In this document: positions 763-38,300 of the stretch, one piece after another | How positions within the stretch are numbered: position 1 is the stretch's first letter | Layout: each line of letters begins with the position of its first letter | Source: Gemmatimonadales bacterium | GTDB taxonomy: Bacteria; Gemmatimonadota; Gemmatimonadetes; Gemmatimonadales; GWC2-71-9 | Length of the DNA: 52,990 nt | NCBI GenBank assembly: GCA_036006105.1 | Contig: DASYPZ010000033.1 | Span: 1-52,990 of the forward strand | Reading direction: 5' to 3' | Program-made: the position numbers and the translations under genes | The notes under the pieces: model-generated | Databases searched by the model: none | What the model saw: only the letters and a program-made list of their open reading frames with translations | What the model was told of the DNA's origin: nothing

Positions 763-2136
763 TCAGCCCGCGGAGATCCCCCAGCGCTGCAGCATCCGGA
801 GCAGGGTCCGGCTGGAAATGCCGAGGATGCGCGCCGCGCCCTCCCGGTTCCCCGCGGTGGCCTTGAGCACGGTCAGCACATGGCGTTTCTCGACCTCCGC
901 CAGGGGGAGGAGGGATGACTCCCCGGCGACCAGCGGATCGGACGGAGCGGCGGCCGCATCGGACCGGAGGTCCATGGGAAGGTGCTCCGGCCCGATGACG
1001 CCCTGCGCGGCGAGCACCATCGCGCGTTCCAGCACGTTCTGGAGCTCCCGCACGTTCCCGGGCCAGGAGTATCCCAGGAGGAGCGATTCGGCTTCGGGGT
1101 CGAGCGCCACCGGCTCGCGCCCGTGGCTGCGGGCCAGGTCCCGGAGAAAATGGTGCGCCAGCAACGGCAGATCCTGCAGCCGTTCCCGCAGCGGCGGAAT
1201 CTTCACCGTCACGACGTTCAGGCGATAGAAGAGATCGCCCCGAAACCGGCCCTGTTTGACCAGGCCTTCCAGATCCTGGTGAGTCGCCGCGACCACCCGC
1301 ACATCCACCTTGACCGGAACGTCGGCGCCCACCGGGGTGATCTCCCGCTCCTGCAGGGCCCGCAGCAGGCGGGACTGCATCGCCGGGGAAATATCCCCGA
1401 TTTCATCCAGGAAAATCGTTCCCCGGTCGGCTTCCCGGAACAACCCGAGCCGGGCCACCGCCGCCCCGGTGAAGGCACCCTTCACGTGCCCGAAGAGCTC
1501 GCTCTCCAGCACCCCCTCCGCCAGCGCGGAACAATTGACCGCGACGAAATGACGAGGGGCGCGGTCGGAATAGGTGTGGATGGCCCGGGCGACCAGCTCC
1601 TTCCCGGTCCCGGTCTCTCCGGTAATCAGGACGGTGGCCTGGCTGGTCGCGACCCGCGCCACCGTCTTCATGACCTCGATGATGCCGGGACTGTGGCCTA
1701 CCACGACCGGACGGCGCAGCTCGGCGCGGCTCTCCACGGCGGGAGCCGGCGCGGGCGTCAGGTGGCGGCGGTCCAGGGCCTGGGTGATCGCGGCGCGCAG
1801 GGTCGGGAGATCGTAAGGCTTGGAAATGAAATCATAGGCGCCGGCCCGGATCGCCTCGCCCGCGGCGTTGGCGTCCCCGAACGCGGTGAGCACGAAGACC
1901 AGTGAACGGGGGTCGCGGCTGCGCACTTCGCGGAGCAGGTCGAGGCCGCTGGCGCCCGGCATGCGCAGGTCGGTGAGCACCGCGTCGAAGGGAGTCGCGC
2001 CATCCAGGGCCCGGAGCGCCTGCTCCACCGTGAGGGCCCGAACCACCGTGTACCCCTCCCGTTCCAGCACCTCCGCCAGGAGGCGGAGCGCCTCCTCGTC
2101 GTCATCCACCACCAGGAGCCGGGCCGCGTCGGTCAT
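763..2136 (-). CDS. sigma-54-dependent Fis-family response regulator (NtrC-type enhancer-binding protein)
   Basis: Receiver domain (LLVVDDDEE...LTDLRMPG). AAA+ sigma-54 interaction domain with Walker A GETGTGKE, GAFTGA loop and ESELFGH. C-terminal HTH. ATG at 2136 overlaps the kinase stop (ATGA). Confidence 0.95.
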   Translation of the reverse strand: MTDAARLLVVDDDEEALRLLAEVLEREGYTVVRALTVEQALRALDGATPFDAVLTDLRMPGASGLDLLREVRSRDPRSLVFVLTAFGDANAAGEAIRAGAYDFISKPYDLPTLRAAITQALDRRHLTPAPAPAVESRAELRRPVVVGHSPGIIEVMKTVARVATSQATVLITGETGTGKELVARAIHTYSDRAPRHFVAVNCSALAEGVLESELFGHVKGAFTGAAVARLGLFREADRGTIFLDEIGDISPAMQSRLLRALQEREITPVGADVPVKVDVRVVAATHQDLEGLVKQGRFRGDLFYRLNVVTVKIPPLRERLQDLPLLAHHFLRDLARSHGREPVALDPEAESLLLGYSWPGNVRELQNVLERAMVLAAQGVIGPEHLPMDLRSDAAAAPSDPLVAGESSLLPLAEVEKRHVLTVLKATAGNREGAARILGISSRTLLRMLQRWGISAG

Positions 2137-3593
2137 GTCGCACCGAGGGCCGGCAGGGTCAGGCGCCAGCGGGTGCCGCTGCCGGCCTCTTCGTGGATCA
2201 GGTCTCCGCCCAGTGCGCGGGCCAGCCGCCGACTCACCGTGAGGCCCAGACCGGTGCCCAGCGGTCCCTTGGTGGTGGCGAAGGGATTGAAGATCTGCTT
2301 CTTGACCTCTTCGCGCATGCCGGGGCCGTCGTCGGAAATGGTGAGCCAGCAGGTGTCTCCCTGCATCCCGGCCCCCAGGGTGATGCGTCCCCCGGGGGGA
2401 AGGGCCTCCACGGCGTTCTTGAGGAGATTGAGCAGGATCTGCTCCACCAGGTCCGGATCGCAGCGGGCCATGACCGGGTGATCCTCCGCTCCATCGATCG
2501 TCGCGGTGACGCGTGCGCCGGCCAGCGAGGGCTCCATGAATTCGAGCATGCGCCTCGCCACCTCGCGGAGATCCACCGGACGCGCCGACGGCTGGGGCCA
2601 CGCCCCGCGGGTGAGCCAGGCGCGGACGATACCCGACACCCGTTCCAATTGTCCCAGGACCAGATCGACCCGCCGGGCCGCGTCTCCCGCGCCGTTGGCG
2701 CTCAGATCCTCGTGCAGCAGCTGGAAATGTCCGTTCAGCGTGTTGAGCGGCGTGCCGATTTCGTGGGCGAAACTGGTCGAAGCCTCGTCGACCAGCGCCA
2801 CCCGCTCCAGGCCGCGGGCCCGCTCCTCCAGCGCGAGGAGCGCCGCGCGGGCGTCGCTTTCCCGCTCGCGCCGCGCCAGCGCGCCCCGGAGCTCGTTGTA
2901 GCGGCGGGCCAGGCTGCGAAACTCCTCCGGCCCCAGCTCCGGAGCCGGGGGACCGCTGCTCGCGCCGGCGTACGCCGCCACCATGGCGCTGCCCAACGCC
3001 TGCAGCGGCGTCCCGATCCAGCGTGAGGTGAGCCAGGCAATGCCGGCACCGAGCACGATGGCCGCGATGCTGGCCAGCAGGTAACTGCGGCGCCGCTCGT
3101 CCCGCGCCCATTCCAGCAGACGGGCGGTGGAAATCCGGAGACTGAGCACACCGGAGAGATGCTTGCGGGGCCCCAGCGGCTCCGCCACGCGCCAGGCCGG
3201 CCGGTCGCCCCGCTCCTGCCAGACGACCTCCTGCCCGCCGGTAAAGGCGCGCTCGTCTTCGGGCGCGAGTCTCGGTGGCGTCAGGGAGTCGGTGGCTCCG
3301 GCCAGCCCGAGGCGTCCGGTTTTTCCCCGTGCGTACACCGTGGCGGAGGTCTGGCGGAGGTGGAGACCGGCCCAGGTCGCCAGCGCCGACTCCAGCGCGG
3401 CCGGATCACCGCTCGGGGCCGCGCGATTGAGATAGTCGGCGAGCGTGGAGGCCACCGCCATCGCTTCCAGCCGGAGATCCTCGAGTCGGGATCGTTCGGA
3501 CAGGGACAGCGACACCTCGGTGACCACGAGCACCAGCGCGATCGCCATACCCGCGGCGAGAATCGCGAGCCGGCGCGAGAGACCCATGGCCAT
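2133..3593 (-). CDS. sensor histidine kinase (two TM segments, periplasmic domain, HAMP, HisKA, HATPase_c)
   Basis: H-box SFAHEIGTPLNTL, N-box LLNLLKNAVEA, G-boxes DDGPGM and GTGLGL. Start chosen at MAMGLSRRLAIL just before TM1; ATG at 3656 is an alternative. Confidence 0.88.
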   Translation of the reverse strand: MAMGLSRRLAILAAGMAIALVLVVTEVSLSLSERSRLEDLRLEAMAVASTLADYLNRAAPSGDPAALESALATWAGLHLRQTSATVYARGKTGRLGLAGATDSLTPPRLAPEDERAFTGGQEVVWQERGDRPAWRVAEPLGPRKHLSGVLSLRISTARLLEWARDERRRSYLLASIAAIVLGAGIAWLTSRWIGTPLQALGSAMVAAYAGASSGPPAPELGPEEFRSLARRYNELRGALARRERESDARAALLALEERARGLERVALVDEASTSFAHEIGTPLNTLNGHFQLLHEDLSANGAGDAARRVDLVLGQLERVSGIVRAWLTRGAWPQPSARPVDLREVARRMLEFMEPSLAGARVTATIDGAEDHPVMARCDPDLVEQILLNLLKNAVEALPPGGRITLGAGMQGDTCWLTISDDGPGMREEVKKQIFNPFATTKGPLGTGLGLTVSRRLARALGGDLIHEEAGSGTRWRLTLPALGAT

Positions 3594-3691
3594 GGTCCAA
3601 TAATACCGCGGAGGTCGTGCCGGGGCCTTCGAACCGGCGGCACACGGCTTGCCCATGTCGGTTCCGGATCACTCTGGGGGAGTACCGCGCG

Positions 3692-4363
3692 ATGATGTCA
3701 GCCGTGCTCTTCGATTTCGGGGGGACCCTGGACGCCGATGGCCGGCGCTGGAGCGAACGGTTTCATCGGGGTTACCGGACCCGGGGCGGGGAGCTGGGCC
3801 CACACACCTTCGAGGCGTTCTTCCGCGCCTCGGACCGACTGCTGCTGGAGCGGTCCGGGGTTTCGGAATTCGGCTTTCATGAGCTGGTCTGGACCCAGGT
3901 CCGGCTTCTGCAGGGGTTGGTTCCGGACGCCTCGTCGGTGGATCCGGTGGCCTGGACCGAGGACTTCGTGTCGGAATCCCGGGACGTGGCGCTGCGCAAC
4001 CTGCCGCTCCTGACGGACTTGGGCCGGCGGTTCGAGCTGGGCGTCATTTCAAATTTTACCGGCAACCTCAGACCCTGTCTGCGTGACCTGGGGATCGAAG
4101 GCTGTTTCTCCGTGGTGTTCGACTCCGGCGTGGTCGGAGTCCGCAAACCGGACCGCCGCCTCTTCCAGGCCGCGTTCGACGCCCTGGGCCTCCCACCCGA
4201 GGAATGCTGGATGGTCGGTGACAACCCGCTGTCCGACATCGCGCCGGCCGCCTCGCTCGGATGCCTGACCTGCTGGCTGGCGCCGCCGGAGCGGCCGCCC
4301 TCGGCCATCACCCCGACCCGACGCATCGCCACCTTGTCCGAGCTGACGACTGTGCTGGCCTGA
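3692..4363 (+). CDS. HAD-superfamily hydrolase (subfamily IA-like, probable phosphatase)
   Basis: Motif I VLFDFGGTLD (the D+2 position is Gly), motif II VISN, motif III RKPD, motif IV VGDNPLSD. GGGGGAG Shine-Dalgarno lies upstream of ATG 3692. Confidence 0.85.
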   Translation: MMSAVLFDFGGTLDADGRRWSERFHRGYRTRGGELGPHTFEAFFRASDRLLLERSGVSEFGFHELVWTQVRLLQGLVPDASSVDPVAWTEDFVSESRDVALRNLPLLTDLGRRFELGVISNFTGNLRPCLRDLGIEGCFSVVFDSGVVGVRKPDRRLFQAAFDALGLPPEECWMVGDNPLSDIAPAASLGCLTCWLAPPERPPSAITPTRRIATLSELTTVLA

Positions 4364-4366
4364 CCG

Positions 4367-5098
4367 GTGCACGCGCTCATTCTGGCCGGCGGCGAGGGTT
4401 CGCGGCTCCGGGCCGACGGGGTGACCACCCCGAAGGCGCTGGTGGAGATCGGGGGACGTCCGCTGGTATTCCGGCTGGTGGAGTCGCTGCGGGAGCTGGG
4501 CTGCGTCACCGTCACCGCGGCGATTCGTCGCAGCGTGCTGGAGGAGGCGGTCACCCTGGCGCGGGACGCGCGCAGCGCCGGGCTCCAGGTGGTCCCCTGC
4601 GACACGCCTTCGTCGCTCCACACCCTGGCGCAAGGACTCGAGGCGGTGGCCCCGGGGCCGATTCTCTGCACCATGGTCGACACGGTGATGCGCGCGGATG
4701 ACTGGCGTCTCCTCTTCCAGCGCGCCGACGGCCTGCTCCAGGACGGCGCCGATGCCTGCGTCGCGGTCACGCCCTTCGTGGACGACGAGACGCCGCTCTG
4801 GGTCACCCGGCGGTCCGACGGGCTGGTCCGGTCGTTCGCATCGAAACCGGTGACGCCCGCGCTGGTCACCGGCGGTGTGTATTTCCTGAGCAGCGGCATT
4901 CGCGAGCTGGCCCCGCGGGTGATCTCGCTCGGGGTGACCCGGATGCGCGGATTCCTCAGCTGGCTGGTCGAGCACGGCTATCACGTGGCCACGGCCGACG
5001 TGGAACGCATTGTGGATCTCGACCGGGGTCGCGATCTGGCCCAGGCGGTGACCTGGCTCGGTGGGATCGCCCCGGCCCTTCCGAAGGCCTCCCTATGA
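4367..5098 (+). CDS. nucleotidyltransferase (NTP_transferase family, sugar/alcohol-phosphate nucleotidylyltransferase)
   Basis: N-terminal LILAGGEGSRL signature. GTG start lies 3 nt after the HAD stop. Confidence 0.85.
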   Translation: MHALILAGGEGSRLRADGVTTPKALVEIGGRPLVFRLVESLRELGCVTVTAAIRRSVLEEAVTLARDARSAGLQVVPCDTPSSLHTLAQGLEAVAPGPILCTMVDTVMRADDWRLLFQRADGLLQDGADACVAVTPFVDDETPLWVTRRSDGLVRSFASKPVTPALVTGGVYFLSSGIRELAPRVISLGVTRMRGFLSWLVEHGYHVATADVERIVDLDRGRDLAQAVTWLGGIAPALPKASL

Positions 5099-5958
5099 TC
5101 TATCAGAAGCGTCGTCACCTGGTGGCGATCTCCCGGAGTCCGGCGTACTCCCCGCTGCAGCACGGGGCCAACGACTCGGCGATTCTCGACGCCACGGTGG
5201 AGGAGCTGGAAGCGCTGGGCTGGTCCGCCCGCCGGGTGACCGAGCAGACGGTGGCCGCCGGCACCCTTCCCGAGGCCGACCTCTATCTCAACATGTGTCA
5301 GGGGCCGGCCGCCTCGCAGACGCTGGTGCCCTACGAGACGATGGGAGTCCGGTTCTTCAACCGTCCCTCGAGTGTGCTGACCTGTCACCGCCATCGCCTG
5401 GTCCCGGCACTCAAGGGCAGCGGCCTCCCCTTTCCGGCCACCGTGCTGCTGCGCACCGACGAGCCGCTCGGCGCCGTCGAATGGGCCGAGCTCCGGGCGC
5501 TGGGGCACGGTCCGGTCTGGCTCAAGCGGGGCGGCGTGCACGCGGAGCGGCCCGAAGACGTCGTGCCGCTCGGCGCAGTCTCCGAGGTTCCCCGCGGTCT
5601 CGCCGAGTTCGCCTCCCGCGGCATCGGTCTCGCCGCGGTCCAGGTCCACGTGCCCGGGTCGGTGGTGAAGTTCTACGCCGTGGCCGATGGAACCCTGTTT
5701 CACGCCTACCTGGCCCAGAGCGGCGCTCCGGTCACCGAGGCCGACGTGGATCTCGCGGCCCTGCGCACCCTGGCCTTCCGGGCCGCCGCGCGGCTGCAGC
5801 TCGACATCTTCGGCGGCGACGTGGTCATCGATGCCGAACGGCGTCCCGTGCTCATCGACCTCAACGACTGGCCCAGCTTCGCGCCCATCCGGGAGCGGGC
5901 CGCCCGCGCGATCGCGGGTCATGTTCACGCCACCCGCCCGCGGGGAGTACCCGCATGA
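5095..5958 (+). CDS. ATP-grasp domain protein
   Basis: ATP-grasp-like organisation: VWLKRGG...VVKFYAV...GGDVVIDAERRPVLIDLNDWPSF. ATGA overlaps with both neighbours. Confidence 0.72.
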   Translation: MIYQKRRHLVAISRSPAYSPLQHGANDSAILDATVEELEALGWSARRVTEQTVAAGTLPEADLYLNMCQGPAASQTLVPYETMGVRFFNRPSSVLTCHRHRLVPALKGSGLPFPATVLLRTDEPLGAVEWAELRALGHGPVWLKRGGVHAERPEDVVPLGAVSEVPRGLAEFASRGIGLAAVQVHVPGSVVKFYAVADGTLFHAYLAQSGAPVTEADVDLAALRTLAFRAAARLQLDIFGGDVVIDAERRPVLIDLNDWPSFAPIRERAARAIAGHVHATRPRGVPA

Positions 5959-7289
5959 CCGACGTCGCCGTGCAGCTCGCCCTGCCGGGTCCGCGATCCG
6001 CCGCGATCTTCGAGGCCGAATCCCGGTTTCTGGCCCCCGGTACCCAGTCCGTGGCCCTGTTCAGCCGCATCGCCTTCGACCGGGGCGAGGGGGCGATGCT
6101 CTGGGACGCCGACGGGAACCGCTACATCGACCTGCTGGCCGGTGTGGGCGTCGCGAGCCTGGGGTACGCCCATCCCCGCTATGTGAAGGCGTTGCAGGAC
6201 CAGGTGGCCCGGCTCCACGTCGGGAGCTTCGCCACCGTCCATCGCGCCGAGCTGGTGAAGCTGCTGGCCTCGGTCGCCCCGGGAGACATAACCCGCACCC
6301 AGTTCTACTCCAGCGGCGCCGAGGCGGTGGAGTCGGCGCTTCGGCTGGCCAAGTCGGTCACCGGCAAGAGCGAGGTGATCGGCTTCTGGGGCGGGTTCCA
6401 CGGCAAGACGTCCGGGGTGCTCCCGCTGCTGGGCTCCAGCTTCAAGCACGGCCTGGGGCCGCTGTACCCGGGGCGCTACAGCACGCCGTACGCCAATTGC
6501 GCCCGCTGCGAATTCGGACTTGCGTTCGAGAGCTGTCAGTGGCACTGCGTCGACTTCCTGGAGCGGAAGCTCGATCGCGAGACCGCCAACGATCTCGCGG
6601 CGATCATCGTGGAGCCGATTCAGGGCACCGCCGGCAACGTGGTGCCGCCGCCGGGCTTTCTGCGCGCCCTGCGCCAGGTCGCGGACCGGCGGGGCGCCCT
6701 GCTGATCGCCGACGAGATGATCACCGGGTTCGGCCGCACCGGAACGATGTTCGCGGTGGAGCACGAGGGCGTCGTGCCGGACATCCTGACGGTGGGCAAG
6801 GGCTTCGGGGCCGGTTTCCCGATGAGCGGGGTGATGGCACGCGAGAGTCTGGCGTTCGCCAAGCCCTGGGCCAATCCCAGCGGCAGCAGCTCCAGTTATG
6901 GCGGCAACCCGCTCGCGGCCGCGGCGGCGCTGGCGTCGCTGCGCATCGTGCTCGACGAGGGTCTGGTGGAGCACAGTCGGCGGCTCGGGGCGCTGATGCT
7001 GGCCGAGATGCAGCGCTGGGAGCGGGAGATCCCCATCGTGCACGACGTGCGGGGCCGCGGGCTCATGATCGGCATGGACCTGGTGCGACCGGGTACCACC
7101 GAGCTGCTCTCCACCCGGGACACCCGCGCCATCTTCGACGGCTGCCTCGCGCGCGGCGTCCTGGCGATGATCTACAACCCGGAAGTCCGGATTAACCCGC
7201 CGCTCGTGATCACCGAGGCCCAGGCCTTCGAAGCCCTCGCGGTCATGGAGGACGTTCTGCGTGACGCTGCCGACCGATTTGGCGCATAA
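5955..7289 (+). CDS. class-III PLP-dependent aminotransferase
   Basis: GFHGKT, EPIQGTAGNV, DEMITGFGRTG and TVGKGFG (PLP lysine) motifs. ATG 5955 overlaps the upstream TGA. Confidence 0.92.
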   Translation: MTDVAVQLALPGPRSAAIFEAESRFLAPGTQSVALFSRIAFDRGEGAMLWDADGNRYIDLLAGVGVASLGYAHPRYVKALQDQVARLHVGSFATVHRAELVKLLASVAPGDITRTQFYSSGAEAVESALRLAKSVTGKSEVIGFWGGFHGKTSGVLPLLGSSFKHGLGPLYPGRYSTPYANCARCEFGLAFESCQWHCVDFLERKLDRETANDLAAIIVEPIQGTAGNVVPPPGFLRALRQVADRRGALLIADEMITGFGRTGTMFAVEHEGVVPDILTVGKGFGAGFPMSGVMARESLAFAKPWANPSGSSSSYGGNPLAAAAALASLRIVLDEGLVEHSRRLGALMLAEMQRWEREIPIVHDVRGRGLMIGMDLVRPGTTELLSTRDTRAIFDGCLARGVLAMIYNPEVRINPPLVITEAQAFEALAVMEDVLRDAADRFGA

Positions 7290-8163
7290 GGGCGACGCGG
7301 TCGAGGAGTGGATCGATCTCCACTTCTTTCGTCCCGCCGGCATGCGGGTGGTGCGGATGCTCGCGCCGACCCGGGTCAGCGCCGATCAGGTCACCGTCGC
7401 TTCGCTGATCGTCGGTCTCCTGGCCGGTCATCTCTTCCTGTATCAAAGCCCGCTCCTCAACCTGACCGGCCTGACCCTGTTCATCGTGTCGGACGTTCTG
7501 GACAGCGCGGACGGCCAGCTGGCGCGAACCCGGGGCAGCTCGACCCGGTTCGGCCGGATTCTCGACGGAATCTCCGATAACGCGCGGTTCGTCAACCTCT
7601 ACGCCCACCTGATGATCCGATTGCTGCTGGCGCACGCCATGGCGCCGCTGGGCGTGGTGGCGCTGACGGTCGCGGCCGGGGTGAGTCATTCCCTCCAATC
7701 GGGCGTGGCCGACTTCATCCGTCAGGTCTACCTCTACATCGCGGGCGGCAGCGGCGAGCTGGACCTGCCCGAGGATCTTCCCGAACAGGCCGCCACCCCG
7801 CTCGGCGGGCTCGGCCTCGCGCTGTATCGGAGCTATGTGACCCGGCAGGCGCACTGGTGCGCCCGGTCGACCGCGCTGGTGCGAATTCTCCGCCGGACCG
7901 GGAGGGTGGCCGGGCTCGCGAACGAATGGGCCATGGAGCAGGCGGTGACGGTGCGCCGCGGAGCGCTGATCGCCCAGAATGTGCGGTTCCTGCTCCTCGC
8001 GCTGACCGCCTGCCGCGGGTGGCCGGCGGGTTTCCTCTGGCTTACCCTGGTTCCGCTCAATCTGGCCCTGATCTGGGTGTTGTGGTCCCATGAGCGCATC
8101 GCGGCCCGGCTCGGATCGATGGCGGCTCCTTCCCGCGACCTGCTCCCGGTGAGCGCGCCGTGA
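7261..8163 (+). CDS. CDP-alcohol phosphotransferase family membrane protein
   Basis: Exact signature DGQLAR-TRGSSTRF-G-RIL-D-GIS-D (DG-x2-AR-x8-G-x3-D-x3-D). Multiple TM helices. GTG 7261 overlaps the upstream gene by 29 nt; ATG 7342 is an alternative start. Confidence 0.87.
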   Translation: MTLPTDLAHKGDAVEEWIDLHFFRPAGMRVVRMLAPTRVSADQVTVASLIVGLLAGHLFLYQSPLLNLTGLTLFIVSDVLDSADGQLARTRGSSTRFGRILDGISDNARFVNLYAHLMIRLLLAHAMAPLGVVALTVAAGVSHSLQSGVADFIRQVYLYIAGGSGELDLPEDLPEQAATPLGGLGLALYRSYVTRQAHWCARSTALVRILRRTGRVAGLANEWAMEQAVTVRRGALIAQNVRFLLLALTACRGWPAGFLWLTLVPLNLALIWVLWSHERIAARLGSMAAPSRDLLPVSAP

Positions 8164-9152
8164 TCGCACCGCAACGGGGGGCCCTGCTTGGCCTCGGCGG
8201 GATCGCGAAGCAATCGCATCTGCCCGGTTTCCTCCGGGGTGAAGGCGTCGCGGAGCGGCTCCGGATCGTCGCGACCGTGGACGATCGCGCGGCGGGGGTG
8301 GAAGGCATTCCGCACTTCCCCGACCGGCACCGCCTCGCCGACCTCGATCTGGATTTCATCGACATCTGCACGCCGACCGCCAGTCATGTCGACCTGACCC
8401 TGTGGGGTCTGGAGTCGGGGTACGATGTGCTCTGCGAGAAGCCGGTGGCGCTGACCGGCCGTGAGGTGGCCCTGATCCGGGCCGCCGCCGGGAGCGGTCG
8501 CATCGTGATGCCGTGTCATCAATACCGCTACAACCCCGCCTGGATCCAGCTGCGGGCCTGGCTCGCGGCCGGCGCCATCGGGGAATGGCACCTGGCCGAG
8601 TTCCACGTATATCGGATGGCCGCCGACGCCGGTGCCGGCCCGACCGCGCAGCCGTGGCGGGGTCGAAGAACCGAGGCCCGGGGCGGCATCCTCCTTGACC
8701 ACGGCACCCATCTGATCTATCAGTTGCTGGACGTGGCCGGGCTGCCGAGACTGGTGCAGTCGTGGAGCGGACGGCTGCGGCACCTGCGGTACGATGTGGA
8801 GGACACCACCCACCTCCTGCTGGAATTCGACGACCGTCTCGCGACTATTTTCCTGACCTGGGCCGCCGATCGGCGGGAAACCCGGATACGTTTCACCGGC
8901 ACGGACGGCAGCATCGAATGGACCGGCGGACAGCTCCGCCTCCAGGGCCGCCACGGCCCGATCGAAATGGACTTCTCGGCCGAGCTGGACAAGTCGAGTT
9001 ATTTTCGCTGGTTCGCACGGCTGTTTCACGAGTTTGGCGACCGGATCGATCATGGTGACGGCACTCTCCCACTGGAGGACATCGCCCGCGTCACACGCGT
9101 GCTCGAAGCCGCGTATGGCGCTCATGCGAACGGCTGCCGCGCGGCCGTCTGA
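8160..9152 (+). CDS. Gfo/Idh/MocA family NAD(P)-dependent oxidoreductase
   Basis: N-terminal Rossmann fold (GLGGIAKQSHLP) and the conserved DFIDICTP...VLCEKP block. GTGA overlap with the upstream gene. Confidence 0.87.
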   Translation: MIAPQRGALLGLGGIAKQSHLPGFLRGEGVAERLRIVATVDDRAAGVEGIPHFPDRHRLADLDLDFIDICTPTASHVDLTLWGLESGYDVLCEKPVALTGREVALIRAAAGSGRIVMPCHQYRYNPAWIQLRAWLAAGAIGEWHLAEFHVYRMAADAGAGPTAQPWRGRRTEARGGILLDHGTHLIYQLLDVAGLPRLVQSWSGRLRHLRYDVEDTTHLLLEFDDRLATIFLTWAADRRETRIRFTGTDGSIEWTGGQLRLQGRHGPIEMDFSAELDKSSYFRWFARLFHEFGDRIDHGDGTLPLEDIARVTRVLEAAYGAHANGCRAAV

Positions 9153-10121
9153 GTGAGCCGGACTCTCCGGCTGATTTTCTTCCTGGTCGGCGCCACGCTG
9201 GTGACGCTGATGGTGTGGCACGCCGGACCCGCCCAGCTCTGGACGGTGTTCCGATCCTCCCTCTGGGTCATTGCCGCACTGATCCCCCTCTGGGCCGCCG
9301 TGTACGTGCTCAACGCCGTGGCCTGGCGGCTGCTTGCCTCGGCCGGGGGAGAGCCCATCCCGCTGCCCCGCGCCTTTCTCATCACGCTGGTGACCTTCGC
9401 GGTCAACTACTCGACGCCGCTCGCCAGCTTCGGGGGCGAGCCGCTCAAGGTGGTGGCTGCCACCAAGTTTCTCGGCAAGCGCCGGGCGGTCGGCTCGGTG
9501 GTGGCCTTCCGGCTGCTGCATGCCCTGGCCCATGTGCTGGCCTGGCTGCTGGCGCTGATCCCGGCCGCCATCCTGCTCCCCCACACCCCGCTCATCCTGG
9601 GCGGCATCCTGGTGACCGGGGCGATCATGACGATCGTGCTGGTCTTCCTCTTCTCGCGCCATCGCGAGGGCCTGGCCATGCACGCGCTGGGCCTGCTGCG
9701 ACGGCTCCCCCTGCTTTCCAGGGTCGCCGCCAAGCTCGAGCCCCGCGCCGCGGCGTTCCACGAGATCGACGAACACGTCACCGCGGTGTATACCGGGAAC
9801 CCCCGCCGATTCTATGCGGCGCTCGGGTTCGAGCTGCTGGGGCGTTTTCTGGCGCTGGCCGAGTACTGGGTGATTCTCTACGGAATGGGCCTGCACGTGA
9901 ACCCGCTGATGGCATTCGTGGTGGGGAGCTTCTCGTCGCTCGTGGTGAACGTCCTGATCTTCCTCCCCTTCGAGCTTGGCGCGAAGGAAGGAGCCCTCTA
10001 CGTGATGTTCGGATGGATCGGGGTCACGCCGGCCCTCGGCATCGCGGCGGCGGCACTCAGCCGAATGCGGGAGCTGATCTGGATCGCGGTCGGGTGGGCG
10101 CTGATCTGGTCGATGGACTGA
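9153..10121 (+). CDS. UPF0104 / lysylphosphatidylglycerol-synthase-TM-region (flippase-like) membrane protein
   Basis: About 8 hydrophobic helices. N-terminus RLIFFLVGATLVTLMVW... is typical of the family. GTG follows directly after the upstream TGA. Confidence 0.78.
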   Translation: MSRTLRLIFFLVGATLVTLMVWHAGPAQLWTVFRSSLWVIAALIPLWAAVYVLNAVAWRLLASAGGEPIPLPRAFLITLVTFAVNYSTPLASFGGEPLKVVAATKFLGKRRAVGSVVAFRLLHALAHVLAWLLALIPAAILLPHTPLILGGILVTGAIMTIVLVFLFSRHREGLAMHALGLLRRLPLLSRVAAKLEPRAAAFHEIDEHVTAVYTGNPRRFYAALGFELLGRFLALAEYWVILYGMGLHVNPLMAFVVGSFSSLVVNVLIFLPFELGAKEGALYVMFGWIGVTPALGIAAAALSRMRELIWIAVGWALIWSMD

Positions 10122-10122
10122 C

Positions 10123-12078
10123 TCAGCCGCCCCGTTTGGCCAACTCCTCCTTGGCGGCGGCGTTGCCGTGGCCCGCGGCCTTCGTGAGCCATGCGAGTCC
10201 GGTCCGTTCGTCCCGGGCAAACCCGCCCTTGCCCTTCAACAGCATCATGCCGATCTGATATTCGGCTTCGGGCTCCTGCTTCTTGGCCGCTTCGGAATAC
10301 CAGTATGTCGATTTCGCTTCGTCCTTCTTGACGCCGCGTCCCTTCTCGAAAGCCGCGCCGAGCCGGGTCATGGCCAAGGCGTCTCCCGCGTCGGCGGCCT
10401 TCTGATACCACTTCACCGCTTCTTTGGGATCCTGGGACAAGCCGTTTCCCTCTTCGAAGCGCCGGGCCACGATGACCCAGATCGCCGGGGTGCTGTCGAG
10501 GTTGGCGGCGAGCAGATATTTTCGCGCGGCCTTGGCCTGATCCAGCGTCACTCCGCGGCCGGTCTCGTAGCGCCGGGCCATCTCGAGCACGGCCACCGGG
10601 TCGAGACTGTCGGCGGCAAAGGTGAAATGCATCGCCGCGAGCCGTTCGTTGCGCTCGACGCCGTGGCCCTCCGCGTAGAGCATGCCCAGGCGGCGCGCGG
10701 CGAGCGGACTGCTGGCCGCCTCTTCCGTACAGCGCGCGAAGGCGACCGTCCAGTTGCTGGCGGTGACCGCGGCTTCGCAGGTGGCAGGCGGCGGCGGCGC
10801 CAGCCCGACGGTGATCGGCGTATCGACGCGCCGGGCCCCGCCGACTTGGCGTTTCGGCGCGGCAACGGTTCTCCGGACCGACTCGGGACGCGTGACGCGG
10901 GTGGACTCCGGTAGCGGGGACGACACGGTTCCCGGGTCCGACGCGAACAGACCGGCCCGGTAGGACGCGAATCCGAGTCCGCCCAGCACTACGATCCAGC
11001 CCAGGGCCACCAGCCAGGGGTGTCGTCCCGCCGGAATGGCGAATTTCGACTCCCGCCGGGTGACGCCGCCCTCGGCCGCGGTCAACAACTCTCCCTTCAG
11101 CGACTTGGCGAACGCATCCATCGAGGCGAAGCGGCGGGCCGGCTCCTTGCGCATGGCCTGATGAATGGTGGAGGACAGGGCCGCGGGAATGTTCGCCACC
11201 AGCCGTGAGAGCGGAATCGGCTCCTCGAGCAGCTGCCGCGCGATCACCTCGCGCACGTTCTCCCCCATGAAGGGGACGCGCCCGGTCAGCATCTGGTATC
11301 CGACAATGGCCAGCGAGTACTGATCGCTCCGGGGATCGGGCGCGCTCTTCCCCATTGCCTGCTCGGGGCTCATGTACTGCGGCGTGCCGATGACCACGCC
11401 GGTGCCGGTGATCGAGTTTTCGACCGAAGAATCCATCGCCTTGGCGATGCCGAAATCCATCAGCAGCACCCGGCCGGTCTTGCCGTCGATCATGAGATTT
11501 TCGGGCTTGATGTCGCGGTGCACCACCCCCGCTTCGTGCGCGGTCTGCAGCGCCTCGGCCGCCTCGAGCAGGATCCGCTGCACCTGCGCCACCGGCAAGC
11601 GCTGCTCCCGGGCCAGCACGCTTTTCAGGGTTTCTCCCTGTACCAGGGGCATCAGCAGCCAGCAGATGCCATCCGCTTCGCCGACATCGTAGATCGGGAC
11701 GATGTGGGTGTTCTGGAGCGCCCCGACCGCTTCCGCCTCGCGACGGAACCGGGTGACCAGCGAGTCGGTGAGAATGAGATCGGGACGGAGCACCTTGAGG
11801 GCCAGCTCGCGCTTGAGGCGCAGATCCCGGACCGCGAATACCTCCGCGTAGCCGCCCCGGCCGATCAGCCGGCCCAGCTGATAGCTGGGCCCGAGCGCCG
11901 CCTGGAGACGATCCGGCGCGAGCTCATAACTGGTGGCGGTGCCGACGGACCCGCGGCTCACGCCGAGGAGCGTGTCACCCAGAATCGGAGATGCGGACGC
12001 GGCGCCGCAGGCGGGACAGAACGCCGCGTCGGCGGGAATGGATTGGTCGCAGCTTGAGCAGGGACGGGTGGGGCCCAA
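10123..12078 (-). CDS. Ser/Thr protein kinase with N-terminal zinc ribbon, one TM segment and C-terminal Sel1 repeats
   Basis: CSSC...CPAC ribbon. Kinase motifs GRGGYAEV, ALKVL, HRDIKPEN, DFGIAK and GTPQYMSPE. Sel1-like repeats (WYQKAADAGD.., WYSEAAKKQE..). TTG start at 12078 is preceded by GGGGAG. The longer ORF to 12534 overlaps the upstream gene. Confidence 0.88.
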   Translation of the reverse strand: MGPTRPCSSCDQSIPADAAFCPACGAASASPILGDTLLGVSRGSVGTATSYELAPDRLQAALGPSYQLGRLIGRGGYAEVFAVRDLRLKRELALKVLRPDLILTDSLVTRFRREAEAVGALQNTHIVPIYDVGEADGICWLLMPLVQGETLKSVLAREQRLPVAQVQRILLEAAEALQTAHEAGVVHRDIKPENLMIDGKTGRVLLMDFGIAKAMDSSVENSITGTGVVIGTPQYMSPEQAMGKSAPDPRSDQYSLAIVGYQMLTGRVPFMGENVREVIARQLLEEPIPLSRLVANIPAALSSTIHQAMRKEPARRFASMDAFAKSLKGELLTAAEGGVTRRESKFAIPAGRHPWLVALGWIVVLGGLGFASYRAGLFASDPGTVSSPLPESTRVTRPESVRRTVAAPKRQVGGARRVDTPITVGLAPPPPATCEAAVTASNWTVAFARCTEEAASSPLAARRLGMLYAEGHGVERNERLAAMHFTFAADSLDPVAVLEMARRYETGRGVTLDQAKAARKYLLAANLDSTPAIWVIVARRFEEGNGLSQDPKEAVKWYQKAADAGDALAMTRLGAAFEKGRGVKKDEAKSTYWYSEAAKKQEPEAEYQIGMMLLKGKGGFARDERTGLAWLTKAAGHGNAAAKEELAKRGG

Positions 12079-12130
12079 GGAAGGCTCCCCTACAGGGAGG
12101 CCGGAGCGAGCACCGGCCGGTGTGAGAGGA

Positions 12131-14206
12131 TCACGGCTTGCGCTTGGCCACCTCTTTCTGCGCCTCCACGTGGCCCAGGTCAGCGGCTTTCTTGAGCCAG
12201 ACATAGCCCAGGGAATCGGATTTCTGGGTCCCCTTCCCGCGGAGATACGCCATGCCGAGCCCGTATTCCGCGTCCCGATTGCCCTTGTCGGCGGCCATGC
12301 GGAACCAGCGCACTCCCTCCGCCTCGTCCCGATCCACGCCTTTGCCGCGAGTGTACATGTCGCCGACCTTGGCCTCGGCAATTTCGTTGCCCTTCTCCGC
12401 CGCCTTGCGATACCAGTACGAGGCGTCCTTGTCGCTCCTCCGGACGCCCAGGCCCTGCTCGTACCGGTCGGCCAGCACCACCCACGCGGGCTGGTAATCC
12501 TTGTCGGCCGCTTCCTTGATCTTCGCGGTGGCATCGACCGGGTTGGCCTCGACCCCCTTGCCGAGACTCAGGAGCTGTCCCAGCCGGAAGAGGGAAGGGA
12601 GGTCCCCGGCGTCGGCCGCCTTCCGATACAGGTTCACCGCTTCGGTGGCGTGGGCCGGAACCTGGCTCTTGTCGTACAACTCGGCCAGCCGGCGCTGTGA
12701 CACCACGTTGCCTTTGTTGGCTTCGTCGGTGCATACCCGGAAGGCGGTATCGCGATCATCTCCCGCCGCCGCGACCGCGCAGGTCACCACGGCGGTTCGC
12801 GACGCGGGACTCGGGGCCGGGGGAGCCGCCGGCCCGGGCTTCGGATTGGCCGTGGTGCCGGACAATTTTTTCTTGGTGTCGGTCGGCGGTGGGGCCGGTG
12901 CCGGCGTGGCGGCAGGCGATGGCGCGGGCGGCGGAGTCACCGTCCCCGTTCCGGTGGTCGTACTCGGCCCCGCCGGAGCGTTGGCCGCGGGCGTTGCGCC
13001 GGCCGGGACCTGGGTCTGCCCGGCGGTATTCGTGGCGGCGGGCGCGCTGTCCGTCACCTTGACCTGGGTCGTGCCGGGACTCCGTGTCAGCGCCACCCCG
13101 GCCGCGACGACCGCGATCGCGGCGACGGCCGCCAGCACCAGCGGCCGGGTCCGGGACTTCCGCGCCGGCGCAGCCGTGGTGATCTGCAGCGGCTTCACCT
13201 CGTCCGCCGACGTTGCCTCCAGTGCCGTGGCGAAGGCCTCGATGGTCGGATAGCGGTCCGAGGGTTCCTTGGCCATTCCCTTCGAGACGGCGGCCATGAG
13301 CGCCTCGGGCACCTCGGGCACCAGCTCCCGCATCGAGCGGGGCGATTCCATCATCTGTTTGAAGAGGATGGCCCGGGTGTTCTCGCCTTCGAACGGTACC
13401 CCGCCGGTCAGCATGTGATAGCCGACGACGGCGAGGGAATAGATATCGGTGCGATGGTCGAGGTGGGGATCGCCGCTGGCCTGCTCGGGACTCATGTAGT
13501 GCGGAGTGCCCACGATGGTCCCGCTCGACGTGAGCGTGCTGTCGCCCGCCGCGTCCATCATCTTGGCGATGCCGAAGTCCATCAGGAGCACCCGGCGCGC
13601 CTTGCCCTCGAGCATGATGTTCTCGGGCTTGATGTCCCGGTGCACCACGCCCGCCTCGTGGGCCGAGCCGAGCGAGCTCGCCGCCTCGAGAAGAATCCGC
13701 CGGGCCTCCGCGATCGGCCGGCGCCCATCCCGGACCAGCAGGCTCTTGAGACTCTCGCCCTTGATGAGCGGCATCAGGATGTACATGATGCCCTCGGCCT
13801 CGCCGATGTCGTAGATCGGGACGATGTTCGGATGGCGGAGCGCCGCGACGGCTTCGGCCTCGCGGCGGAACCGGGCCAGCAGGGTTTCCGACACGGTCAG
13901 GTCGGGCCTTAGGGCCTTGAGGGCGAGGTCCCGCTTGAGCCACATGTCGCGAACCTGGAACACCTCCGCGAAGCCGCCCCGCCCGATCAACCCTTTGAGC
14001 TCATAGTGCTTGCCCAGCGACTCCTGCAGCTTCCGGATCAGATCCGCAGACGCAGTGGGCGAGGGAGCAATGCCATCGGGGATGGAGATTTCACCCGTCA
14101 GCTTGTCGATGGCCGGCGGTGTCGCCGAACCACAGACGTAGCAAAACGCAGCTACTTCCGGTAGCTGGGTATTGCAGGAGGGGCAAAGCCGGGTGGCGGG
14201 AACCAC
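12131..14206 (-). CDS. Ser/Thr protein kinase, paralog of the downstream gene (zinc ribbon, TM, Pro/Thr/Ala linker, Sel1 repeats)
   Basis: CPSC...CYVC ribbon. HRDIKPEN, DFGIAK and GTPHYMSPE. Sel1 repeats (LYRKAADAGD, WYRKAAEKGN, WFRMAADKGN). GTG 14206 was chosen because codons 14207-14320 have atypically low GC3. Confidence 0.86.
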   Translation of the reverse strand: MVPATRLCPSCNTQLPEVAAFCYVCGSATPPAIDKLTGEISIPDGIAPSPTASADLIRKLQESLGKHYELKGLIGRGGFAEVFQVRDMWLKRDLALKALRPDLTVSETLLARFRREAEAVAALRHPNIVPIYDIGEAEGIMYILMPLIKGESLKSLLVRDGRRPIAEARRILLEAASSLGSAHEAGVVHRDIKPENIMLEGKARRVLLMDFGIAKMMDAAGDSTLTSSGTIVGTPHYMSPEQASGDPHLDHRTDIYSLAVVGYHMLTGGVPFEGENTRAILFKQMMESPRSMRELVPEVPEALMAAVSKGMAKEPSDRYPTIEAFATALEATSADEVKPLQITTAAPARKSRTRPLVLAAVAAIAVVAAGVALTRSPGTTQVKVTDSAPAATNTAGQTQVPAGATPAANAPAGPSTTTGTGTVTPPPAPSPAATPAPAPPPTDTKKKLSGTTANPKPGPAAPPAPSPASRTAVVTCAVAAAGDDRDTAFRVCTDEANKGNVVSQRRLAELYDKSQVPAHATEAVNLYRKAADAGDLPSLFRLGQLLSLGKGVEANPVDATAKIKEAADKDYQPAWVVLADRYEQGLGVRRSDKDASYWYRKAAEKGNEIAEAKVGDMYTRGKGVDRDEAEGVRWFRMAADKGNRDAEYGLGMAYLRGKGTQKSDSLGYVWLKKAADLGHVEAQKEVAKRKP

Positions 14207-14240
14207 TACGGGGACTCCAGGGTGCCGAGGAGTGAACGCT

Positions 14241-14267
14241 AACAAATACCCCCTCCGGAAGGGAGGG
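14241..14267 (-). terminator. short GC hairpin plus T-tract in the AT-richer spacer downstream of the aminotransferase gene
   Basis: Minus strand reads CCCTCC-cttcc-GGAGGG followed by GGTATTTGTT. It lies in the 138-nt non-coding spacer 14207-14344. Confidence 0.35.
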
Positions 14268-14344
14268 TCAATGCCCTTCCCGGGATCCGGGCCCAACTGT
14301 TCTATATTGATACACCGCAACGGGTTCCGACGCGAGACCTGGCC

Positions 14345-19012: not shown

Positions 19013-19807
19013 TCAGCGAGAATGGAGCCGGAGTGACGCGGCCAGGCGCTCCCGTCGTCGCCGGCTCACCGGGACCTGGGTACCGTCCAGCAGAATGGCG
19101 ACCGAATCGCCGTCGGAGCCCGCGTGGAGCTCCCGAATCCGATCCAATCGCACCAGCGCGGACCGGTGCACCCGCACGAATTCCGAAGGATCGAGCCGCT
19201 GCTCCAGCGAGGCGAGGGACTCGCGAACCAGGTGTCGCTGTCCCCCCGCGTGAATCCCGGCGTAGTAGTCCCGCGCCTCGATCCAGTCGATTTCCGCCGG
19301 ATCGAGCAGCAGGCGGCCGGTCGCGGTCGGGACCGCGATGCGCCGCTCGCCCGCGCCCGGACCCGGGCGGCCATTCCGTCGACCGGCATCGGCGGAGAGG
19401 AGGGCGGCCAGCCGCGCCGCCAGCTCACTCGCTTCGACCAGGCCGAGACGCTCCCGGACCCGCCGGATCGTGGCGTCGAAGCGGGACTGAGAGAGCGGCT
19501 TCACGAGATAATCGAGCGCGTGGGCCTCGAAGGCCCGGACCGCGAACTCGTCGAAGGCCGTCACGAAGACCAGGAACGGCATCCTTCGACCGGCCCGCTC
19601 CCGCACTACGCCGAAGCCGTCGAGCCCGGGCATCTGGACATCGAGGAAGACCAGGTCGGGCGCCACCGCATCGAAGGCGCGAAGCGCCTCGCGGCCGTTG
19701 CGGCACTCTCCGACCACGACGATGTCGGGGTGGGCCGCGAGCAGCTGACGCACGCCCCGCCGCGCCAGGGGCTCGTCATCGACGATCAGCGCGCGGATCT
19801 CAGCCAT
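19013..19807 (-). CDS. LytR/AlgR-family (LytTR) response regulator
   Basis: Receiver domain (ALIVDDEPLAR...FLDVQMPGLDG) plus a C-terminal LytTR DNA-binding domain. Overlaps the upstream kinase by 8 nt. Confidence 0.93.
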   Translation of the reverse strand: MAEIRALIVDDEPLARRGVRQLLAAHPDIVVVGECRNGREALRAFDAVAPDLVFLDVQMPGLDGFGVVRERAGRRMPFLVFVTAFDEFAVRAFEAHALDYLVKPLSQSRFDATIRRVRERLGLVEASELAARLAALLSADAGRRNGRPGPGAGERRIAVPTATGRLLLDPAEIDWIEARDYYAGIHAGGQRHLVRESLASLEQRLDPSEFVRVHRSALVRLDRIRELHAGSDGDSVAILLDGTQVPVSRRRRERLAASLRLHSR

Positions 19808-20918: not shown

Positions 20919-21051
20919 GCCCGAACTTAGAGTACGCTGAGGAGCCCGGCCACCGCGGTCCGGAGCCTCCACCCGCCCGCCCGTCCCCCGGCTGGGCCCG
21001 TTCGTCCAGGGGCGGTTTGCCTGCGCGACGATCCCGCATAGACTCCGTCCC

Positions 21052-22968: not shown

Positions 22969-23032
22969 TTCCCGCAGGCCCGCCCGTCCCGCCGAGGTGG
23001 CGACGATCTTCGACCAATCGCATTCTGAACCC

Positions 23033-37244: not shown

Positions 37245-37260
37245 TCGAAAGGACCGGAGC

Positions 37261-38295
<1,035 letters not shown>

Positions 38296-38300
38296 CGACG

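Follow-up and report, generated by a model that had tools for sequence, protein, structure and literature searches.

What does an operon make that places CDP-alcohol chemistry beside a dehydrogenase, an aminotransferase and a flippase-like membrane protein? This question is raised by positions 3692-10121 of a 52,990-nt stretch of DNA from a Gemmatimonadales bacterium (contig DASYPZ010000033.1, assembly GCA_036006105.1, forward strand), hereafter the window. The window has a GC content of ~69%, and the nearest relatives of its proteins are from Gemmatimonadales metagenome-assembled genomes (MAGs). The original prediction for this sequence saw these functions united in one operon, which both the family assignments and the conservation of the module support. 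It left the alcohol substrate unnamed and gave no characterised pathway. The alcohol is now probably myo-inositol phosphate, since related clusters of other lineages carry an inositol-phosphate synthase (MIPS) gene in or beside the operon. A published relative also exists, itself uncharacterised: the alternative inositol lipid cluster (Heaver et al. 2022, Nat Microbiol, PMC9246714). Our comparative analysis suggests that the operon encodes a CDP-inositol (Kennedy-type) head-group pathway with added oxidation and transamination, which would give an outward-flipped inosamine-phosphate lipid. We regard this reading as probable by a modest measure.

A conserved seven-gene operon

We observed seven open reading frames (ORFs) on the + strand between 3692 and 10121, with zero internal stops. 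The first encodes a HAD-IA family hydrolase (3692-4363, 223 aa; PF00702, 2.4e-16), which the PF00702 match places in the HAD fold and which also matches PF13419 and PF13242. Three nucleotides separate it from an NTP transferase gene (4367-5098, 243 aa; PF12804, 4.6e-17), which overlaps by 4 nt (ATGA) the gene for an ATP-grasp protein (5095-5958, 287 aa; fold assigned by structure). Another 4-nt ATGA overlap leads into a class-III pyridoxal-phosphate aminotransferase gene (5955-7289, 444 aa), whose PF00202 match (1.7e-95) spans residues 39-435 and establishes class-III membership. The CDP-alcohol phosphotransferase gene (7261-8163, 300 aa; PF01066, 9.4e-11) starts at GTG 7261, 29 nt inside the aminotransferase gene. 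It overlaps by 4 nt (GTGA) a gene for a Gfo/Idh/MocA NAD(P)-dependent dehydrogenase (8160-9152, 330 aa; PF22725, 2e-21; PF01408, 3e-10). The last gene follows at a junction of 0 nt and encodes an LPG_synthase_TM / UPF0104 flippase-like protein (9153-10121, 322 aa; PF03706, 6.5e-31).

All junctions had originally been described as ATGA/GTGA overlaps or gaps of 0-3 nt. This was borne out for five of the six; the aminotransferase/CDP-alcohol transferase junction is instead the 29-nt overlap, which is also called in relatives. The motifs pointed out earlier were all found: FDFGGTLD...GDNPLSD, LILAGGEGSRL and D81-x2-D84-G-x2-A-R-x8-G98-x3-D102-x3-D106. The family assignments likewise stood, with strong Pfam matches for six of the seven genes and with AlphaFold2 (AF2) and Foldseek backing for the ATP-grasp protein. 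A hydrophobic-segment scan marked the CDP-alcohol transferase and the flippase-like protein as the only membrane proteins, the other five being soluble. No operon protein reached any substrate-specific curated NCBIfam equivalog threshold, so every substrate named below is inferred and not readable by homology; the functional assignments draw on family membership, gene neighbourhood and gene fusion. Rfam, tRNA and terminator scans of the window tied no RNA element to the operon.

A one-genome-per-species scan gave 357 loci with a relative of the transferase, and we examined the best 80, all from Gemmatimonadota. Wherever one of these loci was long enough, it carried all seven genes in unchanged order on a single strand. 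Protein identities fell to 35-50% across the Gemmatimonadota loci and were higher for the aminotransferase (69-92% within Gemmatimonadales). The seven-gene arrangement is far beyond chance. The flanks vary: the window has a two-component system and Ser/Thr kinases, locus L081 trp genes and LexA, and locus L084 cupredoxin and sigma-70 genes. Because the seven genes are constant and their flanks differ, the operon behaves as a self-contained unit, and its orthologues are co-localised in relatives, not scattered. All-against-all clustering of the flanking ORFs found no eighth universal gene, and extra genes were clade-specific. The window, L001-L007 and L081 carry the seven genes alone (locus type A).

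A MIPS-linked core and a proposed amination pair

Eight loci outside these 80, chosen for long contigs, allowed the operon to be compared across lineages. Taxon labels are MAG annotations and several of these loci are unlabelled; four of the eight have an NCBI phylum or order label somewhere in the protein cluster (Elusimicrobiota, Planctomycetota, Thermoanaerobaculia and Bacteroidales). MIPS was present on the same strand in five of the eight: L086, L088, L090, L092 and an unlabelled contig whose MIPS gene overlaps the transferase gene by 4 nt (the MIPS-overlap contig). The aminotransferase and dehydrogenase pair was also found in five. MIPS and the pair occur together in L086 (Elusimicrobiota), with a flippase-like gene, a HAD-NTP transferase-ATP-grasp fusion and the CDP-alcohol transferase, and in the MIPS-overlap contig (a same-cluster protein is labelled Thermoanaerobaculia), with the same set. 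The pair occurs without MIPS in L087 (Planctomycetota; full set), L091 (unlabelled; full set and an MMPL transporter) and L089 (unlabelled; two partial sets beside hopanoid genes). Three loci have MIPS without the pair. L088 (unlabelled) carries ATP-grasp-HAD, DUF5686, NTP transferase and transferase genes; L090 (Bacteroidales, GC 40%) carries the full core, a flippase-like gene and DUF5686, with Spt and two copies of a 333-aa ORF upstream; L092 (unlabelled) is a compact five-gene core.

The HAD function was found in all eight outside loci, and the NTP transferase, ATP-grasp and CDP-alcohol transferase functions in seven. The exception is L089, where the AT3-containing string was covered at its dehydrogenase end only and the other set is without a separate NTP transferase gene. 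A flippase-like gene was present in six of the eight clusters. We observed repeated gene fusions that involve the ATP-grasp protein and in which the parts share one reading frame. NTP transferase-ATP-grasp fusions form seven 50%-identity clusters, one with a Planctomycetota and one with a Thermoanaerobaculia label. The HAD-NTP transferase-ATP-grasp fusion is labelled Elusimicrobiota, and ATP-grasp-CDP-alcohol transferase and ATP-grasp-HAD fusions also occur. These Rosetta-stone fusions, which join the ATP-grasp protein to HAD, NTP transferase or CDP-alcohol transferase, lie at L088 10001-11713, L086 10001-12409, L087 10001-11488 and L089 10001-12103; the 'HAD hydrolase' of Bacteroidetes-type inositol loci can be such an ATP-grasp-HAD fusion. 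The linkage of the core genes to MIPS in five of the eight loci, together with their repeated fusion, makes it likely that they catalyse consecutive steps on a small phosphorylated inositol.

The window proteins are recognisably related to those of the outside loci. Identity to the copies in L086, L087, L089 and L091 is 51-55% for the aminotransferase and 26-48% for the other proteins. For the window transferase, the alignment with the L088 and L090 enzymes covers 240-285 residues, and with those of L086 and L087 it is limited to the surroundings of the motif.

The alternative inositol lipid cluster, itself putative, comprises MIPS, an NTP transferase, a CDP-alcohol phosphatidyltransferase (DX2DGX2AR...GX3DX3D) and a HAD protein, with LPG-synthase-like (BT_1521-type) and carboxypeptidase-regulatory-like genes nearby (Heaver et al. 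2022, PMC9246714). The description comes from Bacteroides vulgatus and Prevotella, both producers of inositol phosphoceramide, and a Kennedy-type route via CDP-inositol was proposed for the cluster (PMC9246714). The window operon shares four of its seven genes with this cluster: the core Pfam families are present as contiguous, overlapping and conserved genes, and 9153-10121 corresponds by its PF03706 match to the LPG-synthase-like neighbour. MIPS in the vicinity, another feature of the cluster, is absent from the window and present in L086, L088, L090, L092 and the MIPS-overlap contig. The window in turn adds the class-III aminotransferase and the Gfo/Idh/MocA dehydrogenase. L088, L090 and L092 have the composition of the alternative cluster together with the window's ATP-grasp family, and the L088 and L090 arrangement of MIPS, NTP transferase, CDP-alcohol transferase and HAD (with LPG-synthase-like and DUF5686 genes) is that of the published cluster. 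This likeness to BVU_RS13095, BVU_RS13105 and BVU_RS13115 rests on the published description, not on sequence comparison. The ATP-grasp protein goes unmentioned in Heaver et al. 2022 (PMC9246714). Literature searches on inosamine lipids and on Gemmatimonadetes sphingolipids gave no description of an amination pair added to an inositol-lipid cluster, a kind of cluster that is known but itself putative.

We assessed the CDP-alcohol transferase against its characterised relatives. It is polytopic with a conserved C-terminal extension, and belongs to the PF01066 superfamily. Its signature D-x2-D-G-x2-A-R-x8-G-x3-D-x3-D is complete, with no change at D81, D84, G85, A88, R89, G98, D102 or D106 among 16 homologues. 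The best NCBIfam matches are inositol-phosphate-using members, ahead of PgsA and PssA, and all are far below their cut-offs: archaetidylinositol-phosphate synthase (AIPS) 51 bits (cut-off 180), IPCT/DIPPS 41.5 (580), PIPS 36 (170), PgsA 28 (109) and PssA 26 (107). The model of the BT_1523 type gave 15.7 bits (cut-off 350), and the best PDB match was AF2299 (5e-11). By these scores the transferase does not group tightly with the housekeeping PgsA and PssA enzymes. Neither of the two computational outcomes named as refuting the original prediction, such grouping or orthologues that are not co-localised, was thus observed. A separate pair of Psd and a small CDP-OH_P_transf protein, presumably the housekeeping route, is encoded elsewhere in the genome of a relative.

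The NTP transferase carries the G-x-G-S-R-L...P-K motif and matches PF00483 (3e-8) besides PF12804. Its AF2 model (pLDDT 90.9) was compared by Foldseek, and the top matches were GMPPB, GlmU, MurU, RmlA, PntC and LicC. We considered this fold as a pointer to an inositol-phosphate cytidylyltransferase and set it aside, as the matches are generic sugar-phosphate nucleotidylyltransferases and do not discriminate. The enzyme is presumed to be a CTP:inositol(-amine)-phosphate cytidylyltransferase; that CTP would be the nucleotide is suggested by its CDP-alcohol family partner.

Two further soluble enzymes form the proposed amination pair. The aminotransferase is GabT-like, with GabT 4ffc as its best PDB match (7e-78), and has no substrate equivalog: the best model was PRK05769 (366 of 552 bits), followed by GabT (293 of 507). 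The dehydrogenase matches PF22725, PF02894 and PF01408 and has the N-terminal Rossmann and C-terminal alpha/beta domains of its family. Its score against the IolG equivalog was 39.7 bits versus the 355 required. The PDB relatives are sugar and cyclitol dehydrogenases (DgpA, scyllo-inositol dehydrogenase, inositol 2-dehydrogenase), and weak NCBIfam matches were to UDP-GlcNAc 3-dehydrogenase and inositol 2-dehydrogenase models. The two genes lie side by side in L086, L087, L091 and the MIPS-overlap contig, and L089 has both within one gene string. In L091, a 472-aa gene without a precomputed Pfam entry is the class-III aminotransferase, 51% identical to that of the window.

Pairs of a Gfo/Idh/MocA dehydrogenase and an aminotransferase are known to convert C-OH to C-NH2, as in UDP-GlcNAc 3-dehydrogenase/aminotransferase and inositol dehydrogenase/inosose aminotransferase. 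We propose the same two-step chemistry here, with the difference that the known partners are mostly DegT enzymes and that of the operon is class III (GabT-like). The dehydrogenase is presumed to oxidise a ring hydroxyl to a ketone, and the aminotransferase to act on the oxidised inositol ring.

Taken together, the gene content suggests two layers: a core of ATP-grasp protein, HAD protein, NTP transferase and CDP-alcohol transferase, which the flippase-like protein usually accompanies, and an add-on of dehydrogenase and aminotransferase. The add-on was found in the Gemmatimonadota loci and in L086, L087, L089, L091 and the MIPS-overlap contig.

A candidate inosamine-phosphate lipid and competing products

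In the pathway that we propose, the four core enzymes would adjust the phosphorylation of myo-inositol phosphate and activate it with CTP to a CDP-alcohol. The phospho-alcohol would then be passed to a membrane lipid (diacylglycerol or ceramide) in the fashion of the Kennedy pathway. The dehydrogenase and the aminotransferase would turn a ring hydroxyl via a ketone into an amine, giving an inosamine-type zwitterionic head group, and the LPG_synthase_TM protein would move the finished lipid to the outer leaflet. In the sub-clade of the window, the adjacent two-component system would activate transcription of the operon at a sigma-54 promoter. With MIPS as a neighbour, a kinase and a phosphatase could serve in two ways: the phosphate may be shifted from position 3 to position 1 before activation, or a second phosphate may be carried and removed after transfer, as in the PIPS route. 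We infer from the comparative context that inositol is the substrate here, and the order of steps, the stage of amination and the lipid acceptor are proposed on the same footing. Amination could take place on free inositol phosphate, on the CDP-alcohol or on the finished lipid.

The neighbourhoods of related operons bear on the acceptor. In about 20 loci (type B) the seven genes are joined by a co-directional 147-aa ORF and a small PIPS-like CDP-alcohol transferase. In 23 loci (type C; for example L084 15073-20343, L011 and L014-L025) the type B arrangement faces a PAP2_3 (AUR1-type) gene, an SDR gene, a 333-aa ORF and an Spt-like gene, and in L047, L052 and L060 (type D) the seven genes lie beside the SDR gene, the 333-aa ORF and Spt only. 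The 401-aa alpha-oxoamine synthase of type C scored best with serine palmitoyltransferase NF047600 (537 bits; cut-off 640), ahead of BioF (403), and the 333-aa ORF gave a borderline GNAT match. Bacterial ceramide genes comprise Spt, an N-acyltransferase and an NDUFA9-like reductase (PMC11087976), and by this precedent the 333-aa ORF and the SDR would be bCerS and CerR. Spt, N-acyltransferase and NDUFA9/SDR-type reductase genes were absent from the window and present beside the operon in 26 related loci (types C and D). The type C neighbourhood predicts sphingolipid synthesis in Gemmatimonadales; literature searches on Gemmatimonadetes sphingolipids and on Gemmatimonadetes MIPS returned nothing relevant. 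We count the sphingolipid-gene neighbours (Spt, SDR, GNAT-like ORF, PAP2_3) in types C and D and in L090 toward a lipid product. The flippase-like protein scored 51 bits with TIGR00374 ('flippase-like domain'), above the cut-off of 43.

Two known lipid routes offer comparisons. The eukaryotic Kennedy pathway consists of a kinase, a cytidylyltransferase and a CDP-alcohol:lipid phosphotransferase, and includes ceramide phosphoethanolamine synthase. The proposed route resembles it in leading from an alcohol phosphate through a CDP-alcohol to diacylglycerol or ceramide by a PF01066 enzyme, and differs in the alcohol and the kinase family; the homology seen here is at the level of the PF01066 and nucleotidyltransferase superfamilies. 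The PIPS-type route of mycobacteria and Bacteroides thetaiotaomicron (BT_1522, BT_1523, BT_1525, BT_1526) likewise installs an inositol phosphate head group with a CDP-alcohol-family enzyme followed by dephosphorylation, and is linked to sphingolipid synthesis and an LPG-synthase-like gene (PMC9246714). Gemmatimonadales types B and C share with it the extra small PIPS-like transferase, and type C also the PAP2_3 gene. However, the PIPS route uses CDP-diacylglycerol and inositol phosphate and needs no soluble NTP transferase. We also considered the Caulobacter CpgD (CDP-glycerate) sphingolipid system as a relative and rejected it, since what it has in common with the operon is no more than the use of a nucleotidyltransferase to build a head group.

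Several observations weigh against the proposed inosamine lipid. The usual substrates of class-III aminotransferases are terminal amines or aldehydes, and the inosose aminotransferases that are well known come from the DegT family. No PF07994/PF01658 protein was found in the window, in agreement with the earlier statement that it holds no inositol-phosphate synthase, and tblastn with four real MIPS proteins (from L086, L088, L090 and L092) found none in the window or within 10 kb of 83 Gemmatimonadales loci. The ATP-grasp protein is closest to ligases by structure and only marginally closer to inositol-phosphate kinases of the ITPK family by profile. The HAD protein keeps the nucleophile Asp, but the general acid/base Asp+2 is replaced by Gly, so that the D-x-D-x-T motif of phosphatases is not present. 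Its motif I reads D-[FY]-G-G-T-L-D in 71 of 71 homologues from loci L001-L092, with labels from Bacteroidales to Planctomycetota. This may be an atypical phosphatase or a phosphotransferase/mutase, and perhaps no ordinary phosphomonoesterase. A full-text literature search found no paper on an inosamine membrane lipid. Finally, the polar lipids of cultured Gemmatimonas are given as phosphatidylethanolamine, cardiolipin and an unidentified 'aminolipid', which is not an aminophospholipid, in one description (PMC7844134). The constant presence in these clusters of the ATP-grasp protein and of a HAD protein lacking Asp+2 appears to be unreported in PMC9246714.

The strongest competing explanation keeps the inositol module and changes the role of the ATP-grasp protein. 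This family has no Pfam model and is large, with 1233 representatives at 50% identity (E<=1e-3), 436 of them at E<=1e-30. The window protein was weakly recognised by sequence (PF14397, 1.7e-4, below cut-off). Its AF2 model (pLDDT 90.6) has the three-domain ATP-grasp fold and gave Ddl, LysX/ArgX and RimK in Foldseek at TM ~0.7 and E ~1e-15. Across 45 diverse members, the ATP-binding K144 and the Mg-binding D242, D255 and N257 do not vary. Many basic residues are also invariant, which we count toward an inositol-phosphate kinase. A profile of the family matched the PDB sequences of ITPK4 (2.5e-7), PsnB (4.5e-7), RimK (5e-4) and ITPK1 (7e-4). Weak Pfam matches of the 45 members were spread over ATPgrasp_ST (7), TTL (5), RimK (5), R2K_3 (4) and Ins134_P3_kin (4); the last (PF05770) did not match the window protein, and its best E-value among the four members was 0.0036. 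The family shares with ITPK1 and ITPK4 the fold, a KFY strand and the Mg-site D-[LI]-N-x-[WFL]-P-[SG]-F, and ITPK4 is its top PDB profile match. The likeness is limited to the C-terminal half, however; RimK and PsnB score similarly, and the structural neighbours are ligases.

We put the chance that the ATP-grasp protein is an inositol-phosphate kinase, the role favoured on genomic context, at about one half, and that it is an ATP-dependent ligase at about one third. A ligase would add a carboxylate such as an amino acid by an ester or amide bond, to give an inositol or inosamine lipid in aminoacylated or N-acylated form. This would be an ATP-dependent analogue of the lysyl-phosphatidylglycerol made by MprF, handled by the neighbouring MprF-type flippase-like protein. 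The carboxylate-amine ligases among the top structural neighbours, the PsnB and RimK profile matches, which are comparable to those of the ITPKs, the scatter of the Pfam matches and the LPG_synthase_TM gene in or adjoining most clusters all speak for such a product. Against it, the Mg-site D-x-N-x-[WF]-P-S-F is ITPK-like and not E-x-N, and the fusions to NTP transferase and HAD fit consecutive steps on a small phosphorylated molecule. Moreover, Bacteroides vulgatus and Prevotella, which have the alternative cluster, make plain inositol phosphoceramide (Heaver et al., PMC9246714).

An amine is also not a general target, since the family occurs in L088, L090 and L092 without an aminotransferase. 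We consider the ligase product less likely than the inosamine lipid, yet a serious variant. The same loci, which also lack the dehydrogenase, together with the fusions to NTP transferase, HAD or CDP-alcohol transferase, make the originally suggested N-acylation of the new amine by the ATP-grasp protein unlikely. They place the ATP-grasp protein in the core inositol-activation module, not in the amination add-on. A role as a bacterial ceramide kinase of the Caulobacter type was ruled out, as CpgB is of the LCB5/DAG-kinase type.

A soluble product is less likely than a lipid. By the logic of IPCT/DIPPS, the enzymes of di-myo-inositol phosphate synthesis in hyperthermophiles, the operon could make a di-inosamine phosphate or glycero-phospho-inosamine osmolyte against desiccation or salt stress. 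The likeness is real in that a cytidylyltransferase yields CDP-inositol there, a membrane CDP-alcohol transferase follows and a phosphatase acts last; the trio of NTP transferase, CDP-alcohol transferase and HAD has the same logic, IPCT/DIPPS and AF2299 are among the best transferase matches, and the inducible sigma-54 control in the clade of the window, described below, would suit a stress solute. Yet the known product is a soluble osmolyte made without a flippase-like protein, ATP-grasp protein, dehydrogenase or aminotransferase, and the transferase reaches 41.5 of 580 bits with the IPCT/DIPPS model. The conserved flippase-like membrane protein in the unit, the MMPL lipid transporter inserted in L091, the Spt, ceramide-type and PAP2_3 neighbours in Gemmatimonadales and Bacteroidales and the inositol lipids made by Bacteroidetes relatives (PMC9246714) all disfavour the solute, and we judge it improbable. 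The MMPL (RND-type lipid transporter) gene of L091 lies within 1551-10913; on one side of it is the dehydrogenase/aminotransferase pair, on the other are the genes for HAD, NTP transferase, ATP-grasp protein and transferase.

Two loci carry isoprenoid genes beside the module. In L089 (1-18969), two partial module copies lie beside dxs, ispH and a hopanoid cluster with shc (squalene-hopene cyclase), hpnH (an HpnH-type radical SAM gene), hpnG (PNP_UDP_1), an HpnA-like epimerase gene and a squalene-synthase gene (SQS_PSY). The MIPS-overlap contig has dxs and ispH directly upstream. These neighbourhoods suit an acceptor of the phospho-(amino)cyclitol other than a glycerolipid or ceramide, namely a hopanoid side chain or a capsule or lipopolysaccharide glycan. 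HpnL is in addition the nearest named NCBIfam subfamily of the flippase-like protein, and Heaver et al. are reported to link inositol metabolism to the capsule in Bacteroides thetaiotaomicron (PMC9246714). The HpnL score was 69 bits against a cut-off of 196, however, the hopanoid neighbourhood was seen in a single lineage, and neither the window nor the 83 Gemmatimonadales loci pair the operon with genes for hopanoid synthesis, glycosyltransferases or polymerases. Such an acceptor is therefore quite improbable, and we retain a diacylglycerol or ceramide as the expected one.

Least probable of all is a Gemmatimonadales alcohol other than inositol (a serinol- or glycerol-derived or sugar-alcohol phosphate, or another polyol or amino-alcohol phosphate) for which the module was re-used: the lack of MIPS within 10 kb of any Gemmatimonadales locus, the GabT-like aminotransferase of a class that usually handles terminal carbonyls and the absence of any inositol-specific equivalog match would fit, but the window proteins are related, at the identities given above, to the copies in L086, L087, L089 and L091, with MIPS inside the L086 string and also inside that of the MIPS-overlap contig, the gene order of the aminated variant is kept across lineages, linkage of MIPS is not required, and free inositol is available in soil. 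The serinol-phosphate amidation system of the Campylobacter capsule likewise combines an ATP-grasp enzyme, an aminotransferase and a HAD protein. We set it aside as a model, since here ATP-grasp and HAD occur without the aminotransferase in MIPS-linked clusters.

If the inosamine-phosphate lipid is real, its head group would be zwitterionic like that of phosphatidylethanolamine yet bulky and hydroxyl-rich, with a possible bearing on desiccation or antimicrobial-peptide tolerance and possible use as a biomarker. Gemmatimonadota rank with the most abundant phyla in soil, and very little is known, to our knowledge, of the chemistry of their membranes. Among soil Gemmatimonadales the cluster is common, with at least 80 species-level genomes that hold it, and its aminated type also occurs in Elusimicrobiota- and Planctomycetota-labelled MAGs. 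The ATP-grasp protein and the HAD protein without Asp+2 in loci of the alternative-cluster type are biochemical candidates for a host-microbe-relevant pathway of gut Bacteroidetes. A further-reaching proposal, which we hold only tentatively, is that the operon makes an undescribed lipid class, an inosamine-phosphoryl glycerolipid or ceramide, and that the ATP-grasp protein, as a remote relative of eukaryotic ITPKs, is a new inositol-phosphate kinase of bacteria and the unrecognised missing enzyme of the alternative pathway in Bacteroides and Prevotella.

Regulation and neighbouring genes

Upstream of the operon, we observed a sigma-54-type -24/-12 element, GGCAC-N5-TTGC (GGCACACGGCTTGC), at 3639-3652 on the + strand, ~40 nt 5' of the first start codon. 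It is the single match in the window; on its own the motif is weak, with at least one match in 36 of 100 shuffles. The same motif was present at the identical position in L001, L002, L004, L006 and L007. Divergent from the operon on the - strand lie a histidine kinase gene (2133-3656; HATPase_c) and a gene for a sigma-54-dependent (NtrC-type) response regulator (763-2133; Response_reg, Sigma54_activat and HTH_8). This kinase/activator pair is kept directly upstream in exactly the motif-bearing loci, and the other locus types have neither the motif nor the pair. These data suggest that the operon is probably an inducible member of the sigma-54 regulon under the adjacent two-component system, in the sub-clade of the window only.

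Directly downstream, the operon converges on a tandem of two genes at 10123-14320 (-), each for a Ser/Thr protein kinase whose C-terminal part has Sel1 repeats. The first of the two keeps the same position in L001-L003. Further into the window, two membrane acyltransferases of the HGSNAT_cat / Acyl_transf_3 type were found at 17656-18846 (-) and 28641-29780 (-), and two LytTR-type two-component pairs (His_kinase/HATPase_c with Response_reg/LytTR) lie back to back at 19013-22940. A PQQ-dependent dehydrogenase (PF01011, 1e-228) is encoded at 22997-24970 (+), where GC is lower (~0.655-0.68), and was missed by GC3-based gene calling. A Bat/MoxR 'aerotolerance'-type operon occupies 36480-44739 (+) and encodes DUF4159, a MoxR AAA_3 ATPase, DUF58, BatA/VWA and a DUF4175 protein; upstream of it are genes for large proteins without Pfam matches (30720-33997) and for a TPR protein.

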